Source: an uncultured bacterium (GTDB lineage: Bacteria; Oederibacteriota; JAAXVQ01; JAUVAV01). From it: 64,000 nucleotides of DNA. The notes under the pieces were generated by a model. It ran no database searches. It saw only the letters and a list, made by a program, of their open reading frames with translations, and was not told the origin of the DNA. The translations under genes were made by a program, and so were the position numbers. Shown here in pieces: positions 3,793-49,502 of the stretch; the first letter of the stretch is position 1, and the number at the start of each line of letters is the position of its first letter. The stretch lies in contig CAVQBK010000003.1 of assembly GCA_963710755.1 (NCBI GenBank), forward strand, positions 1,120,001 through 1,184,000, given 5' to 3'.

Positions 3793-4143
3793 ATGAGACC
3801 AGAAGAACGGCGTTATGAATACCGCATCCCAGCGGAAATTATCATTGATCAATTGGATCATTGTGATCTCAAGCCAGGTAAGTTTCAAGCCAGCATCAGA
3901 GAATTATCCGCTTCGGGTTGCCGTTTGCAATCTTCTTTGGAACTTAAAATCGGGCAGGAATTCGATATAAGCTTCAATTTGGAAGGCGGCCTTAGAATAG
4001 AATGTGCCCGGGTCAGGGTTGTTCGCCGGTTATCCCACCGCACCCATAAAGTGGTGGCCATGGAGTTTATGGATCTTCCCGAAGAAGATCAATACCGGAT
4101 CAGGGAGTTTATCATTTGGAAAGAAGCGCAGGAGGCAGAGTAA
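3793..4143 (+). CDS. Stand-alone PilZ domain protein
   Basis: RRYEYR (RxxxR) and ELSASG (D/NxSxxG variant); stop overlaps purD start (TAATG). Confidence 0.85.
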   Translation: MRPEERRYEYRIPAEIIIDQLDHCDLKPGKFQASIRELSASGCRLQSSLELKIGQEFDISFNLEGGLRIECARVRVVRRLSHRTHKVVAMEFMDLPEEDQYRIREFIIWKEAQEAE

Positions 4144-14042: not shown

Positions 14043-14393
14043 TTAATAGTCCACCAATTCAGCCAGAATACTTTCAATATCCTTGCGATAGGCTTCATTC
14101 ATCCTTACAAAAGCCATGCCCAACAGCAAGCTGTGGTGCTGGGAATCAAATTTGGACCATTTGACAGTTCCCTGTCCGGTTATCGTATTGAAAGGTTCGG
14201 GTAAATGCAGAGCATAATGCAACTTATGGGAATTGTACAAATGAGGTGGGACAGGGACCTTGATACACATGCCGCCCAAACTTAAATCCTGCACATGGCC
14301 GGAAGACTTAATTTCCTTGCGAAGCTCATTATCTGTAAAAATACAATAAATGGGAAATTTTAAATCTACGCGGGCATATTGGCGACGCTGCAT
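14043..14393 (-). CDS. Stand-alone PilZ domain protein
   Basis: RRQYAR and DLSLGG motifs. Confidence 0.9.
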   Translation of the reverse strand: MQRRQYARVDLKFPIYCIFTDNELRKEIKSSGHVQDLSLGGMCIKVPVPPHLYNSHKLHYALHLPEPFNTITGQGTVKWSKFDSQHHSLLLGMAFVRMNEAYRKDIESILAELVDY

Positions 14394-18882: not shown

Positions 18883-19236
18883 TCAAATCGTGTTAAGTTC
18901 ATCAACCAAATTATTAATCAGCTCCTGATGTTCAGGATTAATATTTTCAAAAGCCATGCCAAAAATAATAACCTGTTTATCATCATCCCGATCAGACCAT
19001 TTAATATGGCCTTTGCCAGTTAACGTTGAAAACGGTTCGGGTAAGGTTAAACGATAGGTTAGACTGGAAGAATCGATCATGGGTTTGGGGATGGGAACAC
19101 TTATGCGCATCCCGCCCAGACTTATATTGAGCACTTGACCGGCAGACGTAATTACGGCCTGTGTTCGAGCATCAATAAAGGTACAACTTATTGGAAAATC
19201 TATATCCACCCGTGGGAAACGCCGATTTTTAACCAT
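18883..19236 (-). CDS. Stand-alone PilZ domain protein
   Basis: RRFPR and NISLGG; paralogue of 14043-14393 (LPEPF, G.G..KW). Confidence 0.9.
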   Translation of the reverse strand: MVKNRRFPRVDIDFPISCTFIDARTQAVITSAGQVLNISLGGMRISVPIPKPMIDSSSLTYRLTLPEPFSTLTGKGHIKWSDRDDDKQVIIFGMAFENINPEHQELINNLVDELNTI

Positions 19237-19483: not shown

Positions 19484-19870
19484 CTATTTTTTAAATAACA
19501 TTGATAATGATTCGTGCTCCGATGACAACTCTTCCATAATATGACTTAGTTCCAGACGATGCTGCTGATCGGGATTGGAAAAGGCCAGGCCAATTTGAAC
19601 ATGACTTTGATCAGGATCCTGAAAAGTCCACTTAATATCTCCTTGACCATAAAGGCTTTCGAAAGGTTCTGGCAAATGAATTTGATAATGCAAATGTTGT
19701 GCTTCTTTGGCCCAGCTATGATCATTTAATGGCAAAGCAATTTTCATTCCACCCATACTTATATCTTTGATAATGCCTGATGTGGCCATGGTATCATTAT
19801 CATTCTTTTTCAAGGCGCACGATACAGGAAGGTTTACATCTACTCTTTTAAATTGTCTTTGGTTGTTCAT
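19484..19870 (-). CDS. Stand-alone PilZ domain protein
   Basis: RQFKR and DISMGG; LPEPF paralogue signature. Confidence 0.9.
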   Translation of the reverse strand: MNNQRQFKRVDVNLPVSCALKKNDNDTMATSGIIKDISMGGMKIALPLNDHSWAKEAQHLHYQIHLPEPFESLYGQGDIKWTFQDPDQSHVQIGLAFSNPDQQHRLELSHIMEELSSEHESLSMLFKK

Positions 19871-19909
19871 GTTGCAGTCCCCTCATTAAGGCATTAAGTG
19901 TTAAATTAA

Positions 19910-19937
19910 TTATCGGATTAATTCATGGTCAGCTTTA
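19910..19937 (-). promoter_or_regulatory. sigma28-like promoter for PilZ gene
   Basis: Minus strand TAAA-N16-TCCGATAA. Confidence 0.45.
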
Positions 19938-20847
19938 GGATCAATTGAAATAGTTCGATACTATTACAGTAAGATGACCATTATTTAAATGATCACTAAT
20001 AAGATAATAAAAATGATCAACGATTACGTGGTCTTGTGGTAGTCATCGGGAATTGAACCAGGTTATATGCTAATGGCAAGTAAAATGATAATGTTTATAA
20101 CATTGAATGGAAGGATGCTAAGAGCATCAGGAAAATTACTAATACTTACTGCCCTAAAACAAAGAAATCAAACCATTGGGGGCCGTAAACCGTTTTGTTT
20201 TTTTGGATATAATGGTTAAATAACTTAGAGTCTGTAGACGCGACCTAATGCAGCGTTAGGACTAGGTTTGATAATATTATTATTTTATAAAGGTTTTTGA
20301 ATTAAATAAAAAAAATAGGCAGCTGTAATATGAGGGGATTGTGGGACGGGTACTAAATCAGGTTGGATAAAATCATACTGTAATAAAATAATAACATTTA
20401 AAATAAAGGAAAAGAAAGATTGTATTAACAATAAAATTAAACTATATAGGCGATTAGAGTTAATTATAAGGATTGGCAAGGTGAAATTGATTTTACCAAG
20501 GAGGTGATGTTACCAGGACCTCATCAATTTATACAATTATTCGCAAGCGTAAAGCGTTAATTTAGAAATAATGATATTTTTCCACTGCCTCCTAAATACC
20601 CCAAGATTCAGTGCGAAACATTTTGTTAGGAATGAGGATTTAAAAACACCTATTTATAAACAATTTTACCTTAAATTTTAAATAAAATGAGTTAAATACT
20701 AATTAAATATCAAATTACTGACTATTACAACAGTAATTAATAACATGAATTTACTAGGAGTGTAAGCAATTAATCTATTCCATGAAGTGGATAGACGGCT
20801 ACGACCTCTCCTGTGTGTACAGGATTCATTACAGTGGGTGGAAACAT

Positions 20848-20921
20848 CCTTATCAAAAAAATATTATAACCGGTCAGGGCAGCCGAAAGTGTCCCTTTCC
20901 CATAATATTAATTCCGGTCGG
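20848..20921 (-). repeat. Dispersed copy plus adjacent degenerate copy of the 42-bp tRNA-Pro-linked repeat
   Basis: Reverse complement of 20891-20921 = CCGACCGGAATTAATATTATGGGAAAGGGAC, 30/31 identical to array unit 5; continues ACTTTCGGCTGCCCTGACCGGTTATAATATT. Confidence 0.85.
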
Positions 20922-21479
20922 TACCATTAGGTTTTCATTTTCTCCATTTGTTCGAACTGCTTAGGAGTGCAAGCGAGACGGTTGTACCTACTCGTCGATT
21001 ACCAAAGGATAAGCAAGTAACAAAGGATACCTTCGAATTAAATGAATGGTTTTATGGCCAGAAATAATGGGTTGACAAGTAGTCATTATTATAATAAGAA
21101 TATTGTAATGTCATGGAAAGGACAACTAAATAAAAGTGCAGTAGATGATGGTGATTTATAAATAGTGACCATTTTCCATTGAGCAGTAATGGAATGGTAA
21201 AGTGTCCATTGGGTATGCTTTTGATAGATGGCTTGGTTTATAAAAACTTAACATAAGAAAATAATAATATTAATTTATAGTCATAAAATTAATTTTATAA
21301 AATTATTTTATTACAGGGGAATTATATCTTAAATTAAGAATAAAGCGCTAGGCACCAAAGGGTTAAATTAATCACTTAAACTCAATCAATTTATTATTAT
21401 AAGAAAACATTGCGTATTTAAAAAAAATATGGTACATAAATAGAGGCATCAAATTCTTATAATAATATAAGGATGATTT

Positions 21480-22043
21480 ATGGAGAATCAATTACCCTTT
21501 CATCAGACCATAGCTTCCATTAAAGAGGTATTGTCAAAGAAGTCTTTTGTATTGGGGCTGTTTTTATCCAAAACAACCATGGAGGAGAAAGAAAAAATAG
21601 ATCTATTTATACTCATCGAGAACAACGATTTTATTGATGAAACAGTCAATCTTTTAACTACTATCCAAACAACCTATATCCTTAATCCTGATATTTGGTC
21701 CCTGGAAGCGCTTCAAAATACAGAACAAGACCATGTCCATGCTATTTTTAAAGAAGGTAAACTCATTTATTGGAATGCCATTGTCGATGTCCTGGCCAGT
21801 CAGGTATTTAAAGTTCGACCATATACGATATTTACTTTTGAGGTCAAACAATTCCATCAGCATGCAAAAGTGAAGTTTAATTATCAATTATATGGAAAAA
21901 AGGATAATGGATTATTGAATCAATGGGCTGGTCATCGGTTGGCTAACTCTTGTTTTTATGTTCCTTATTCCAATAAATATAAAGTAATGAGGTATTTTAA
22001 TAAAAATAACATTAAAAACACTCAAAAAGATGTATATTTCTGA
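21480..22043 (+). CDS. Degenerate minimal nucleotidyltransferase domain plus C-terminal Cas2/VapD-like domain (putative)
   Basis: VLGLFLS..EKIDLFILI and IFKEGKLIY follow the MNT pattern (GS/DxD eroded); C-term PYTIFTF..KVKFNYQLYG..GLL..G.RL.NSCFYVP. Confidence 0.55.
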   Translation: MENQLPFHQTIASIKEVLSKKSFVLGLFLSKTTMEEKEKIDLFILIENNDFIDETVNLLTTIQTTYILNPDIWSLEALQNTEQDHVHAIFKEGKLIYWNAIVDVLASQVFKVRPYTIFTFEVKQFHQHAKVKFNYQLYGKKDNGLLNQWAGHRLANSCFYVPYSNKYKVMRYFNKNNIKNTQKDVYF

Positions 22044-26788: not shown

Positions 26789-27955
26789 CTAGGAATACTC
26801 CAGGAAAAGCTCGTGCATTTCATCGAAACGGTCCAGGAACAGATCTAATAAATGGGGATCGAAATGCGAAGCCCGTCCCTCTTTAAGGATGCCAAATACC
26901 TGTTCCGGTGGAAAAGGATCCTTGTAGGGGCGTTTGGAAAAGAGCGCATCGAACACATCGATGATGGCCAGTAGGCGTGCTGCCAGCGGAATTTCTTCCC
27001 CCTTGAGCTGGTTGGGATAACCATTGCCGTTCCATTTCTCATGGTGAGAATCAGCAATATCCACGGCCAGCTTGAGCAAGGGCGCCTGTCCTAATATGGC
27101 CGCACCTTTGGTGGTATGGGTTTTCATAATTTCGAACTCATTGTCGTCTAAAGAACCTGGTTTGAGCAGTATGCTGTCAGGAATGGCCACCTTGCCAATA
27201 TCATGCATCATCATAGATACCCGCAAGTTTTCAAGATCTTTAGCGCCAATGCCAATGGCTTTGGCCAAGCGGACGGCATATTCACCGCAGCGTTCAATAT
27301 GCAAACCAGTGTCGTGATCGCGGAATTTTTCAGCCTTGGCCATATTGAGCATGCTGCTGATATAGGCGCTCTTGACTTCGTCATACAGGCGGGCATTATC
27401 AATGGCTACGGAGACTTCGGCCGCCATGGTTTTAAGTCGTTGCGCGTCGGCCGCGGTGAATGTACCCCGGGCCTTGTTCAAGACTTCCAACACGCCGATG
27501 CGTTTACCTTTGATGGGAATGGGTGTGGCAATGAGATTTTTGGTGACGAATTTGGTTTTGTCATCCACCTGCTTGTAAAAGTACTTGCTTTTAGCGGCGT
27601 CGGGAATAAGTAAGGTTCTCCCAGTAAGAAAGGAGCGGCCGGCCACGCCTTTATCGGCAGGCATGCGAATAACTTTTAACACATCCTTCTTCGTACCAGT
27701 TGCCAGATAAAATTTCAGCTCATTGCTCTCGGGATCATGAATTAAAATGGATGAGGCAGTGGCACCGAGCGTTTTTTCCATTAGTTGCATGGAGAGATTG
27801 AGGACTTCATCAATTTCCAAGGAAGAATTAATGAGTTTGATAATGCGGTCCCGGGCTGATATTGTTAGGGTTCCGCTCGAGTGGAGACGTTTGCCTTGGC
27901 GGCGTTTGGAAGCCGCAGCGCTTTTGCCCGGAGTTGATGAAGCACGTCTGGCCAT
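26789..27955 (-). CDS. GAF + HD-GYP cyclic dinucleotide phosphodiesterase
   Basis: GAF (GVAG, FYKQVD, IGVLEVLNK); HDIGK, HHEKWNGNGYP, DVFDAL..RPYK. Confidence 0.93.
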   Translation of the reverse strand: MARRASSTPGKSAAASKRRQGKRLHSSGTLTISARDRIIKLINSSLEIDEVLNLSMQLMEKTLGATASSILIHDPESNELKFYLATGTKKDVLKVIRMPADKGVAGRSFLTGRTLLIPDAAKSKYFYKQVDDKTKFVTKNLIATPIPIKGKRIGVLEVLNKARGTFTAADAQRLKTMAAEVSVAIDNARLYDEVKSAYISSMLNMAKAEKFRDHDTGLHIERCGEYAVRLAKAIGIGAKDLENLRVSMMMHDIGKVAIPDSILLKPGSLDDNEFEIMKTHTTKGAAILGQAPLLKLAVDIADSHHEKWNGNGYPNQLKGEEIPLAARLLAIIDVFDALFSKRPYKDPFPPEQVFGILKEGRASHFDPHLLDLFLDRFDEMHELFLEYS

Positions 27956-30084: not shown

Positions 30085-30750
30085 TGTTTGCCTCCGGAGA
30101 ATGAGTTAATCACCGGCTAATTATTCCAAATTTACCGATTCTGTCAATAGTTGTTATAGAGCCGAGGTGACCATCCGCAATATTAGGCAGGTTAAGTAAT
30201 AGGAGCTTGTGTTTCAACTGAACAGCTGGGGTATCTCATAAATAAATTTACATTTGGCTAAGTCGCTTTGAAACGATTTTTTTATTTCGCCACCCAGAAA
30301 GGATTAATCCGGGGTCCGCAATGATTTTGATCGATAAAATCACTGGTGGCCGGCTTAAAGCATGACGGCAGGACGTTTTTAAAAATAAATTCAAATGTAA
30401 TGAAGCGTACATTACAGGTACAAAGTTAAAGCTGGCCAAGGCAATGGCTGGCAATGACTTGAAACATCCCCATTTCTCACTGCGGCTTGCGGTTGACAGC
30501 CGGCCCATTGCGTTGGAAATCGTGACCGGCGGGGGCAGCCGGAAACCTCCCTTTGACATAATATTCAGTCCGGTTGATAACGGAAATTAATACACGGCGA
30601 CGAAATGCTGTACAAATTAAGCTGGACTTAAAAACATTTCGGAATTTAAGGGTTGTATAACTTTCAGGGAAAACCAGGAAATGACTATTGCTATTAAGGA
30701 ACATCCACGAAAAAAGATATTCTGGTTATCCCAATTTAATTGCCACATTT

Positions 30751-30999: not shown

Positions 31000-31180
31000 G
31001 GCAAGTGTTGGGCAGTCAATGAAACTGTTATGGGCATAGGGGCGGGAATAATTAAATAACTCCGGCCAAGAGTAATTATTCTTCCCCTATTTTTCGCCAT
31101 AAAGGGGGGCTGATCTAAAGATATACTTTATCCTAGATCTGCTATGATTGCAGCCCGCCCATGGGCTTCAATGCCTCCCG

Positions 31181-31222
31181 AAAAAATACCCTCGTGGTTC
31201 CCCCCAGCGAGGGTATTTTTTT
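31181..31222. terminator. Bidirectional intrinsic terminator
   Basis: AAAAAATACCCTCG...CGAGGGTATTTTTTT between convergent genes. Confidence 0.8.
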
Positions 31223-39268: not shown

Positions 39269-40927
39269 ATGACTGATGATCTCGGTAACTCCGAAACTGC
39301 TGCCTCTGGCGACAATCAACAGGGAAGGTTAAATTTAAATCGTCATGATCATCCGGCCCGGCCGTCCCAAGAAGCGCTGGACCTTATGGGCAGGAGTTTG
39401 ACCGTTCTTACTTCCAAGCAACCATTGTCCGCACGGTTGAACACCCTGGCTGAACTGGTCAAGTCCGGTTTGCACTTGCAGGGTACGGCGTTTTATCTTT
39501 GGGACGATGATCGGGAAACCTTTGTGCTGCATGGCTCTGCATTAAACCAGGGCTTGATGGGCCGGTGGCCCGTGGTCCGGCAAGACTGGTGGTCTTTGTT
39601 CCAATCGCGGCAAGTGGAACATGAACTCCTCCCAACACCTCACGACCTTCGGCTCAAAGACTTTAATAGTGGCACTGCCCTAACTATACCGCTTTGGCTT
39701 CAGAACCATTTCCTGGGGGTCATGACCGTAATCCGGTGTAGGCCGGAGCAACCGTCTTTTTCTCCCAGGGAAATCAACCTAGCCCAGATGCTAGCCGCGC
39801 AAACAGGATTGGCCGTAGGAGCGCAGCAACTGAACCACCAATATCATCGCGCCCAAAAAGAAGCTTATGTTGCGCAAACCTTATTGCAAATGGCGGAGGA
39901 TATTGAAACCTTGGATTCCCAAGCAGAGGTGCTGGACCGTATACTCCTCATTATTTCGCGAGCCCTCAACTTCAGGCAAACCGCCATCTTTCTTTGGGAT
40001 GAAGAAAATAATGCCTACCATTTGGCCAAGGCCACAGGGTTGCCGGCCCAAAACCGGCCAAGTTGGTCAGCCTTGAGCTTGAGCCAACAGGACCTGGCCC
40101 TATGGGCCCTTGAGCGCGAGGAACGCACCATTGTGAAGGTCCGGGCCGATCTTCACACCGCCTTAGTAAAGCAACTGGAGGGTTCTTTTAAATGTGAGGA
40201 TAGTCGCTTGATTCCTTTGATTGTGAAGAACAAATTGTTGGGTGTCGTTGTGGCGGCCGATTATCAAGGGCAGTCTCCCTATAGCCCTAGCACGGAGTTC
40301 TTTTTAAAAGGCATTGGCACCCAGGCTGCCATTGCCTTAAATGACGTTAAATTGGTGGAAGCTCTGGATAGGGCCTTCTGGGATGTCATTAAATCTCTGG
40401 CCACCACCATTGAAGCCAAGGACCATTACACCCATTCTCACTCCCAGTCCGTGGCCATCTACGGCACTAGTCTGGCCCGGGCCTTGGGATTACCAAAAAA
40501 AGAAGTCGATAAAATTGCCAAGGCATGTCTGCTTCATGATCTGGGCAAAATCGGTATTGCCGATGAGATTCTTCAGAAACAAACGCCCCTTAGTCCCAGC
40601 GAACGCAATGAGATCAACAAACATCCCGTGATTGGAGAAATGATTCTCAACACGGTTCATCATTTTAATGATATTGCCTTATTGGTCAAACACCATCACG
40701 AAAAAGTCGATGGCACCGGTTATCCTGAACAGCTTAAGGGGGAGGAGATACCCTTGTACGCCCGCATCATCCAAATTGCCGATTCCTTTGATGCCATGAC
40801 CTCCGACCGCCCCTACCGCAAAGCCATGAGCCGCCGGGAGGCAATGGCGGAATTGAAAGCCCATGCGGGCCATCAATTTGATAAAAATTTAGTGGATGTC
40901 TTTTTAACCACCTTGGACAACAGGTAA
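39269..40927 (+). CDS. GAF-GAF-HD-GYP phosphodiesterase
   Basis: Two GAF-like segments; EAKDHYTHSHS, HDLGK, HHEKVDGTGYP, DAMTSDRPYRK. Confidence 0.92.
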   Translation: MTDDLGNSETAASGDNQQGRLNLNRHDHPARPSQEALDLMGRSLTVLTSKQPLSARLNTLAELVKSGLHLQGTAFYLWDDDRETFVLHGSALNQGLMGRWPVVRQDWWSLFQSRQVEHELLPTPHDLRLKDFNSGTALTIPLWLQNHFLGVMTVIRCRPEQPSFSPREINLAQMLAAQTGLAVGAQQLNHQYHRAQKEAYVAQTLLQMAEDIETLDSQAEVLDRILLIISRALNFRQTAIFLWDEENNAYHLAKATGLPAQNRPSWSALSLSQQDLALWALEREERTIVKVRADLHTALVKQLEGSFKCEDSRLIPLIVKNKLLGVVVAADYQGQSPYSPSTEFFLKGIGTQAAIALNDVKLVEALDRAFWDVIKSLATTIEAKDHYTHSHSQSVAIYGTSLARALGLPKKEVDKIAKACLLHDLGKIGIADEILQKQTPLSPSERNEINKHPVIGEMILNTVHHFNDIALLVKHHHEKVDGTGYPEQLKGEEIPLYARIIQIADSFDAMTSDRPYRKAMSRREAMAELKAHAGHQFDKNLVDVFLTTLDNR

Positions 40928-48513: not shown

Positions 48514-48589
48514 CGGGGCGTAGCGCAGTGGCTAGCGCGCACGCTTGGGGTGCGTGAAGTCGGAGGTTCAATTCCTCTCGCCCCGACCA
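48514..48589 (+). tRNA. tRNA-Pro(GGG)
   Basis: CGGGGCG acceptor, anticodon arm CACGC-TTGGGGT-GCGTG, GGTTCAATTCC, encoded CCA. Confidence 0.96.
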
Positions 48590-48610
48590 GTTTAACTATA
48601 TTATAAATCC

Positions 48611-48927
48611 GGGACCCTTCGCAGCCCCGACCGGAATTGATATTATGTGAAAGGGACGCTTCGCAGCCCCGACCGGAATTGATATTATGTGAAAGGGACG
48701 CTTCGCAGCCCCGACCGGAATTGATATTATGTGAAAGGGACGCTTCGCAGCCCCGACTGGAATTGATATTATGGGAAAGGGACGCTTCGCAGCCCCGACC
48801 GGAATTGATATTATGGGAAAGGGACGCTTCGCAGCCCCGACTGGAATTGATATTATGGGAAAGGGACGCTTCGCAGCCCCGACCGGAATTGATATTATGG
48901 GAAAGGGACGCTTCGCAGCCCCGACCA
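48611..48927 (+). repeat. Tandem array of a 42-bp unit (7 full + 1 partial) containing the tRNA-Pro 3' end
   Basis: Unit GGGACGCTTCGCAGCCCCGAC(C/T)GGAATTGATATTATG(T/G)GAAA starting at 48611, 48653, 48695, 48737, 48779, 48821, 48863, 48905; ends GCCCCGACCA. Confidence 0.97.
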
Positions 48928-49153
48928 GTCAGTGCCTAGGGAGGTGCATGACTGAAAATCGATCCGGCCTACAACTACGGGCCAAGCCATCGGGAGTCGG
49001 GAATTGATGACATGAGATTTTCGATTCGGCCGATTTTCGACATTCCATTTTCCTTTTTTTGGTTGTCCCCACCTCAGACATTGTGGCTGTTATTGGTCCA
49101 GCCATTGGTGGTAATAGACGTCATTTCGAATAAATGATTCTAATTATCCTTCC

Positions 49154-49181
49154 TTGATCTTTTCCTTATTTTTCGTATAAT
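49154..49181 (+). promoter_or_regulatory. sigma70 promoter of tRNA-Pro(CGG)
   Basis: TTGATC-16-TATAAT ending 15 nt before the tRNA. Confidence 0.6.
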
Positions 49182-49196
49182 GTCAGCTACTTAAAT

Positions 49197-49272
<76 letters not shown>

Positions 49273-49293
49273 GTTTAACTATATTATAAATCC

Positions 49294-49360
49294 GGGACGC
49301 TTCGGGCAGGAGAAATGCCCTTGGCAGCCCCGACCGGAATCAATATTATTGGAAAGGGAC
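49294..49360 (+). repeat. Single copy of the 42-bp repeat with an inserted hairpin
   Basis: GGGACGCTTCG-[GGCAGGAGAAATGCCCTTG]-GCAGCCCCGACCGGAATCAATATTATTGGAAAGGGAC (last 37 nt 34/37 identical to the array). Confidence 0.88.
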
Positions 49361-49502
49361 ACTTGGTGGTGGTCCATTTGTTGTGTTTGCTCGAGTGTTC
49401 CGGAGCCTGAGCATTTAGTTGGTCAGGTGCCCATAGCTGATCTCAGATACGCTAACGTCCCCGGCGGGGCGATGAAACTGGACATAGACGAAAGGAAAGG
49501 GG

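Follow-up and report, generated by a model that had tools for sequence, protein, structure and literature searches.

The tandem array of 42-bp units that follows a tRNA-Pro(GGG) gene in the window analysed here (the whole stretch of DNA, 64 kb) very probably belongs to a dispersed family of mobile elements, the resemblance to the tRNA end being a mimic created by the junction between two units. Units of this family are scattered over the window and a related genome, have fixed ends, are inserted precisely without duplication beyond a GC dinucleotide, show a target bias and form head-to-tail arrays that grow locally. The element is real and, as far as this can be checked, previously unrecognised. 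Its fuller description as a non-autonomous mini-element of about 44 bp (with variants of 42 and 59-64 bp), specific to a lineage near FCPU426/Firestonebacteria and mobilised in single-stranded form by an HUH transposase acting in trans, stands at about an even chance.

The array behind tRNA-Pro(GGG)

The features of the locus are the following.

48514..48589, + strand: tRNA-Pro(GGG), downstream of ihfA-like and merR-like genes; its 3' end is a 9-bp match to the element junction and acts as target
48580-48591, + strand: copy 1 of a 12-bp direct repeat flanking the array (sequence comparison)
48582..48625, + strand: unit 0, a diverged 44-bp unit that overlaps the tRNA end, the encoded CCA being kept
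48626..48919, + strand: seven 42-bp units (units 1-3 identical, 4 identical to 6, 5 identical to 7)
48637..48939, + strand: open frame of 14-aa repeats spanning the array (ORF list)
48918..48929, + strand: copy 2 of the 12-bp direct repeat (sequence comparison)
48926..48954, + strand: 12-pair RNA hairpin after the last unit (RNA folding)

A tandem 42-bp array had been recognised here in an earlier, sequence-only reading, and two lines of evidence agree with it. GCCCCGAC is found at positions 48580 and 48624 and then every 42 bp up to 48918 (one spacing of 44, then seven of 42), and TRF applied to the window returned 48611-48926 with a period of 42, 7.5 copies and 97% matches. The motif GCCCCGACC has nine matches in the window against 0.6 expected, a number reached in none of 100 shuffles. 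What had been taken for an AT-rich trailer between tRNA and array is itself a diverged 44-bp unit, unit 0, and was missed at that time. The ordered unit variants were confirmed (TGTG in units 1-3, TGGG in units 4-7, CTGG in units 4 and 6), as were the seven occurrences of GCGAAGC on the minus strand and the termination of the last unit in GCCCCGACCA with the 12-pair hairpin next to it; internal units carry no CCA. Units 4-5 are identical to units 6-7, a two-unit duplication that marks local growth within the array and supports the earlier proposal of a minimal element expanding stepwise. Compared with the 44-bp unit of the family, the 42-bp units lack one base on either side of the inner stem; apart from these two single-base deletions, 3-4 substitutions separate them from the family consensus.

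Copy 2 of the 12-bp repeat would represent the original tRNA end, displaced, and the hairpin at 48926..48954 is probably the native tRNA trailer or terminator. Since the 12-bp flanking repeat is longer than the GC microhomology, extended homology acted as well at this array. Folding of the array as RNA was no better than that of shuffles, and an Rfam scan returned tRNAs only, plus one sub-threshold match (E 0.04); positive evidence of a processed small-RNA array was not obtained. The open frame of 14-aa repeats has a weak DUF7170 match on a 12-aa stretch in a Pfam scan; a coding role was rejected and the frame regarded as incidental, the 44-bp period of the relative's arrays breaking it. As previously stated, the array is not a CRISPR: there are no unique spacers and no cas genes.

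Further copies in the window

The dispersed family suggested at the outset was borne out by a search for more copies, which gave three more loci in the window and 21 contigs of one related assembly, CAYVTN01. The additional window features are listed here.

49197..49272, + strand: tRNA-Pro(CGG), the second target, 683 bp downstream of tRNA-Pro(GGG), with its own sigma-70-like promoter at 49154-49181
49265..49328, + strand: 64-bp long-class unit, start same as unit 0, hairpin longer by 18 nt
49329..49364, + strand: 3'-truncated unit, directly after the 64-bp unit
20879..20922, - strand: dispersed 44-bp unit, no tRNA near; a decayed second unit follows on the same strand (about 20835-20878)
30535..30578, - strand: dispersed, diverged 44-bp unit, no tRNA near

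Four unit loci are thus present in 64 kb, two of them without an adjacent tRNA. A position matrix built from the array and the second tRNA-Pro locus only gave 47.4 and 28.7 bits to the minus-strand sites at 20879-20922 and 30535-30578, respectively, the best shuffle reaching 15.1 (n=20). A profile search found 10 unit matches in the window, and a second shuffle test also gave 10 matches there and none in 100 shuffles. The two tRNA-Pro genes have a 43-bp identical run in common, made of 17 nt of tRNA and 26 nt of trailer, and the presence of unit 0 at both may result from conversion between the genes. The tRNA-Arg and tRNA-Ala genes of the window have other 3' ends and no units.

Two observations concern the surroundings of these copies. 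The copy at 20879-20922 lies within about 1.6 kb of very AT-rich DNA devoid of long ORFs (19870-21480), adjoined by tandem PilZ genes and a nucleotidyltransferase-like gene. After the second tRNA locus, a 25-bp stretch (49402-49426) is identical at 23/25 positions to L006:90-114 of the relative, where it is found near another gene; it is possibly a further small repeat or a regulatory site.

Units in a related genome

Species-representative genomes were scanned with an exact pattern, by which more diverged members of the family would be missed. Thirty-eight loci were obtained, 22 of which (on 21 contigs) come from CAYVTN01; L031 was left out as a duplicate of contig L029. The 16 loci from other genomes are attributed to chance, being single matches in which the profile matches only over the searched stretch, with a rough chance expectation of about 9; 12/16 were listed at E<0.05, the best being L026 (7e-6, positions 5-36). 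Among these chance matches, L003:1847 and L024:10001 are from two Bacteroidota genomes and lie in almost the same DNA sequence, some 1.7 kb downstream of tRNA-His; it looks like a tRNA-His-integrated element.

The genes of CAYVTN01 are 70-84% identical to window DNA, and contig L006 is syntenic with the window at 27-41 kb. The nearest named relatives of the window IlvD are from candidate division FCPU426 and Firestonebacteria (78-79% identity). In CAYVTN01 the unit is 44 bp long (e.g. L005:9997-10040) and occurs singly or in tandem, the L005 array consisting of four exact repeats; a profile search of the loci gave 41 matches in 154 kb. Conservation of the window unit looks higher than that of the genes next to it. 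Of 28 unit sites, 26 are outside long ORFs.

The sequence-only reading had the element anchored site-specifically at tRNA-Pro. This did not hold in the relative, where none of the 21 contigs has a tRNA next to a unit, a count to be read with the fact that many units are at contig ends, so that a hidden neighbour is possible, and that the relative's tRNA-Pro locus is outside the set. In L035, a tRNA cluster begins about 250 bp downstream of the unit; on the upstream side the contig ends. A unit lies within 100 bp of a contig end in 12/21 contigs and two more adjoin N gaps; the family thus explains why contigs break off in short-read genomes of the lineage.

Other repeats were encountered in CAYVTN01. 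A MITE-like family of 100-400 bp with GTAACTACTCAG-like inverted ends (L013:9194-9588, L029:5037-5390, L029:9928-10252; shorter copies at L015:87-207, L005:10967-11013, L005:11939-12048, L027:2783-2860 and L034:1700-1802) carries the 44-bp unit at two sites. Long palindromic REPs with a G(T/C)AG foot are present at L007:1434, L008:3017, L020:668, L022:6167, L029:14101, L029:15459 and L029:16996; the same scan detected none in the 64-kb window.

Ends, empty sites and targets

Unit ends are sharp, the start being CCC(G/T)AC and the finish GGC(A/T)GC. Positions 1-3 are CCC in 22, 22 and 23 of 23 units and the terminal GC is conserved in 21 and 22 of 23, all of these positions being outside the search pattern. 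Filled and empty sites can be compared within one genome in a host repeat of CAYVTN01, the one with GTAACTACTCAG-like inverted ends. At its first site, the length difference between three filled and six empty copies is exactly 44 bp, and nothing beyond the GC microhomology is duplicated; the three filled copies probably go back to one insertion event. At the second host-repeat site, two filled copies (59 and 62 bp) face one empty copy. A third site, in L037, differs from its nearest empty look-alike (L013:7585) by +43, not +44. Between the two genomes, the L006 array lies within about 0.5 kb of additional sequence, at a place without an array in the window, and an alignment of 38 bp of flanking DNA ends at 30579, a single base short of the 30535-30578 copy.

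The left side of the cut is G(C/T) at 14/17 non-redundant sites (P 7e-11) and the right side is YYY at 7/12 (P 3e-4), or at 5/10 if the window sites are omitted (P 0.006). Insertion sites therefore fit G(C/T)^YYY, a loosened form of the unit's own junction GC^CCC. This preference accounts for the tandem arrays, for an insertion in a REP arm in L020 and for the insertion at tRNA-Pro. The 9 bp common to the tRNA-Pro end and the units, initially understood as a reiteration of the tRNA 3' end as in Escherichia coli, are the element's head-to-tail junction, which is present at all tandem loci. A short 'reiteration' of a tRNA end can thus come from a look-alike junction instead of from duplication of the tRNA, and such cases should be interpreted with caution. 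In L005, L019 and the host-repeat site, unit ends are identical and only GC is common to unit and site.

The base at -3 of the left flank is A/T in 9/17 sites. Cutting at C|T (or C|A) by a TnpA-REP enzyme, which would need A or T there, was rejected on this mixed composition. The two ends are not complementary, so that terminal inverted repeats are absent, and no target site duplication extends beyond GC; a DDE-type MITE was rejected on both grounds. Where a unit at the end of an array is incomplete, it is the 3' side that is missing (49329, L006, L035); the first unit of an array is often the most diverged one (48582, L001, L027, L028). The unit is oriented along the gene strand at 12/15 co-directional sites (P 0.018), a count from which site 20922 was excluded since its nearest genes diverge. 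With respect to the replication strand, third-position GC skew is positive on the element strand at 15/21 loci, and window copies are distributed two per strand.

Hairpin, length classes and predicted junction promoter

A bulged hairpin, complete only where two units meet, is formed by the final 17 nt of one unit together with the CCC of the next. Its foot on the opposite strand is GTCG in 17/23 units and GTAG in 6/23, the layout of a REP, for which a GTAG-type tetranucleotide 5' of an imperfect palindrome is described (PMC8266576). The lower stem has only 3 bp. The loop is more variable than the stem (13/66 against 13/176, P 0.0095), and its classes determine units of 42, 44 and 62-64 bp, a 59-bp form being also seen; such loop classes are described for GTAG-3 REPs (PMC3733652). 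Two long variants (49265-49328 of the window and L029:5241-5302) differ in their inner sequence, and both are longer by 18 nt with an inner 5-bp stem and carry a 23-nt insert between GGGACGC and GCAGC. No compensatory base-pair changes were observed in the hairpin, whose pairing was not above that of shuffles in an alignment that misplaces the gaps of three 42-bp rows, and the DNA fold is thermodynamically ordinary (z 0.14 to -1.5). In both genomes, the junction is a predicted sigma-70-like promoter with a 17-bp spacer: the -10 box matches at 5/6 positions in all six junctions checked, and the -35 box at 4-5 of 6 positions in five junctions and at 3 of 6 in one.

Searches for an enzyme and for related sequences

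The idea of a linked recombinase or Y1 transposase found no support: Pfam scans of 68 ORFs from the window, 126 from the relative's loci and 51 other frames, covering 64 kb of the window genome and about 154 kb of the relative, returned no transposase, recombinase or Cas gene. Likewise, no cognate tnpA-REP gene flanked by repeats was present in these 245 frames, nor any DEDD/Tnp20 recombinase with the unit's ends in the loci covered. BLAST of the window and L005 arrays against plasmids and phages gave nothing, or matches of 20-30 bp at E 0.5-6. No account of the 44-bp unit family was found in the text of the literature searched; a match to one of the 24 GTAG consensus sequences listed in Figure 1 of PMC3733652 is conceivable.

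Proposed mechanism

Movement as single-stranded DNA by an HUH enzyme is suggested by four properties of the unit: it is too short for a double-stranded circle, it lacks terminal inverted repeats and target site duplication, it has a subterminal hairpin and its target resembles its own end. For this mechanism taken by itself, our confidence falls at or just short of an even chance. A transposase encoded elsewhere, either Y1/IS200-TnpA-REP-like or IS91-like, would cut and join the unit at the GC^CCC junction. IS91 itself has no target site duplication, a subterminal palindrome and an ssDNA circle (PMC13181058), and TnpA-REP subclasses with atypical flanking structures exist (PMC6006769), which makes an unusual HUH partner plausible. 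Arrays with 3'-truncated last units could arise by rolling-circle-like copying, re-insertion at the element's own junction and slippage; excision by TnpA-REP and rolling amplification have been modelled for BIMEs (PMC3333891, PMC2817692). At tRNA-Pro, insertion would leave the tRNA intact and push the old end and the hairpin downstream. The orientation bias could come from exposure of the sense or lagging-template strand, as considered in PMC5027513, or may be due to selection, the other strand having a terminator-like reading that would be disfavoured.

The GGGAC arm, located 5' of the small hairpin, might pair with the junction or the target as IS200/IS605 guides do, guide pairing being described in PMC8266576. 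The pairs would be G:C at -2, C or T at -1, and G:C or G:T at +1 to +3. The target consensus is complementary to this arm if G:T is allowed, which suggests guide pairing from few sites; such self-guided pairing is a doubtful part of the scheme. Its strongest form, also unlikely, would be a self-guided minimal transposon: a single GGGAC arm would pair with both its own junction and G(C/T)^YYY targets, the hairpin would serve as both ends and guide, and an undescribed HUH nuclease or recombinase would move and multimerise the unit. If true, few bacterial elements that insert precisely would be smaller than the unit; its cut-in-stem logic would be unlike that of REP, IS200/605 and attC, and a promoter would be created at every tandem junction.

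The in vivo spread and array formation of REP-like repeats are still open questions (PMC3333891, PMC8266576). Unlike most REP families, the unit family combines ends that are fixed with sites known in filled and empty form, a bias in its targets and arrays caught in growth. Together, these features make it possible to predict the cut site and the guide and, when the enzyme has been found, to test both with short oligonucleotides.

Comparison with known systems and alternative explanations

The closest likeness is with the REP/BIME/REPIN repeats of the TnpA-REP/RAYT system, especially bulged GTAG-3/group-2 REPs and tandem REP clusters. These are short, extragenic and dispersed, single or in tandem with a linker, as is the unit. 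The imperfect hairpin of the unit has GT(C/A)G at its foot, and GTMG variants are reported for REPs (PMC3733652). Its loop-size classes (GC/GC, GCC/GGC, long self-paired) are also comparable, with copies homogeneous at each locus, and so is dispersal followed by local amplification. The differences are as clear. The unit boundary GC^CCC cuts through the hairpin stem, whereas the REP palindrome is intact within the mobile unit; arrays are only head-to-tail, without REP/iREP inverted pairs; the C|T target rule does not apply; GTCG prevails over GTAG; and the frames scanned hold no cognate tnpA-REP. The unit thus works like a non-autonomous REP/BIME-type repeat and resembles MIRUs in its genomic behaviour (PMC3184786), but fails REP membership on account of the split hairpin, the C|T rule and the inverted pairs. 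With IS91/ISCR and IS200/IS605 it shares the absence of TIR and TSD, a palindrome near one end (weak in the unit), a target like its own end and possibly guide pairing; it differs in having no transposase, one tiny hairpin that would serve both ends and no fixed target tetranucleotide.

The main rival to an HUH transposase is an IS110-type mover. The unit would be an internally deleted IS110/IS1111 derivative with joined right and left ends and a GC core, a bridge-RNA recombinase would act in trans, and arrays would form by insertion into its own junction. The sigma-70-like junction promoter predicted in both genomes and the 2-bp GC microhomology, compatible with a core, fit this explanation. 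In IS110, the circles form junction promoters, REPs serve as targets and MITE-like derivatives in tandem exist (PMC12288879), and non-autonomous tandem copies are also found for MITEPpu9 (ssr9). However, the unit is far shorter than these elements and too small for an RNA gene, and it has no subterminal inverted repeats. ISPpu9 targets are highly conserved around the core (PMC12288879), whereas unit targets have about five loosely defined common bases: flanks are diverse beyond G(C/T)^YYY, with no sign of a bridge-RNA-type specific target around the core. The loci covered contain no IS110 gene, and the sole plasmid match inside one is 25 bp long (E 0.5). A double-stranded circle of 44 bp is moreover physically implausible, which counts against this rival. 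Overall, an IS110 derivative is considered unlikely.

A dispersed minisatellite without a dedicated enzyme, comparable to mycobacterial MIRU or pneumococcal BOX, is a slim prospect. It would spread by microhomology recombination, gene conversion, hitch-hiking in larger repeats and slippage. Several copies indeed reside inside larger host repeats, the 43-bp identical run of the two tRNA-Pro genes is of the kind left by conversion, the duplication of units 4-5 as 6-7 is of slippage type, and unit orientation tracks transcription. MIRU and BOX are likewise dispersed intergenic units of 40-100 bp with tandem arrays and filled and empty sites (PMC3184786), but the unit lacks their 4-bp direct repeats, TIRs and conserved ORF, and its sequence is unrelated. 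Identical ends at unrelated sites having only GC in common (L005, L019, host repeat) are hard to obtain by homology alone.

A tRNA-linked repeat, in which the tRNA 3' end would have been duplicated locally, or a functional small-RNA array cut at tRNA-like ends, is very improbable, and an origin of the array by tRNA duplication is largely refuted. The units do stand behind both tRNA-Pro genes of the window and the last one restores CCA, as the tandem repeats right behind E. coli tRNAs (tyrT etc.) contain the tRNA 3'-end sequence, and rRNA-linked TLRs of E. coli are transcribed and processed (PMC8144298). Yet the common sequence is 9 bp for internal units, which lack CCA, and 12 bp for the terminal repeat, against 18-19 bp in TLRs (PMC8144298). 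TLRs are confined to tRNA/rRNA operons, whereas the unit family is mostly away from tRNAs (2/4 window loci and 21/21 relative contigs without an adjacent one) and its match stems from the element junction. The repeat-free tRNA-Arg and tRNA-Ala genes and the lack of an Rfam match also disagree with this origin.

An array of sites for Xer or another tyrosine recombinase has hardly any likelihood. The first 28 bp are dif-like in size, and we take positions 18-28 (e.g. 48643-48653 of the window) to resemble an XerD-binding arm, TTAT(A/G)T(G/A)AAAG being conserved where an 11+6+11 spacing predicts it. These positions belonged to the search pattern, though, the left 11 bp are unlike an XerC arm and insertion boundaries fall at the unit edge, outside the would-be 6-bp central region. 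Finally, an assembly artefact or chance is barely credible: the copy number of the array comes from one assembly, but the units are of three ordered types, independent arrays exist in a second genome (L005, four units), 0/100 shuffles match and the source contig measures 1.47 Mb (1,467,107 bp).

Other observations in the window

A non-coding stretch of 199 bp (31026-31222) is 84% identical to L006:9010-9203, above the level of nearby genes, and begins with a strong hairpin; it has no Rfam match at gathering score. Four stand-alone PilZ genes (3793-4140, 14046-14393, 18886-19236 and 19487-19870) and two GAF-HD genes (26792-27955 and 39269-40924) within 64 kb suggest extensive cyclic-di-GMP signalling.
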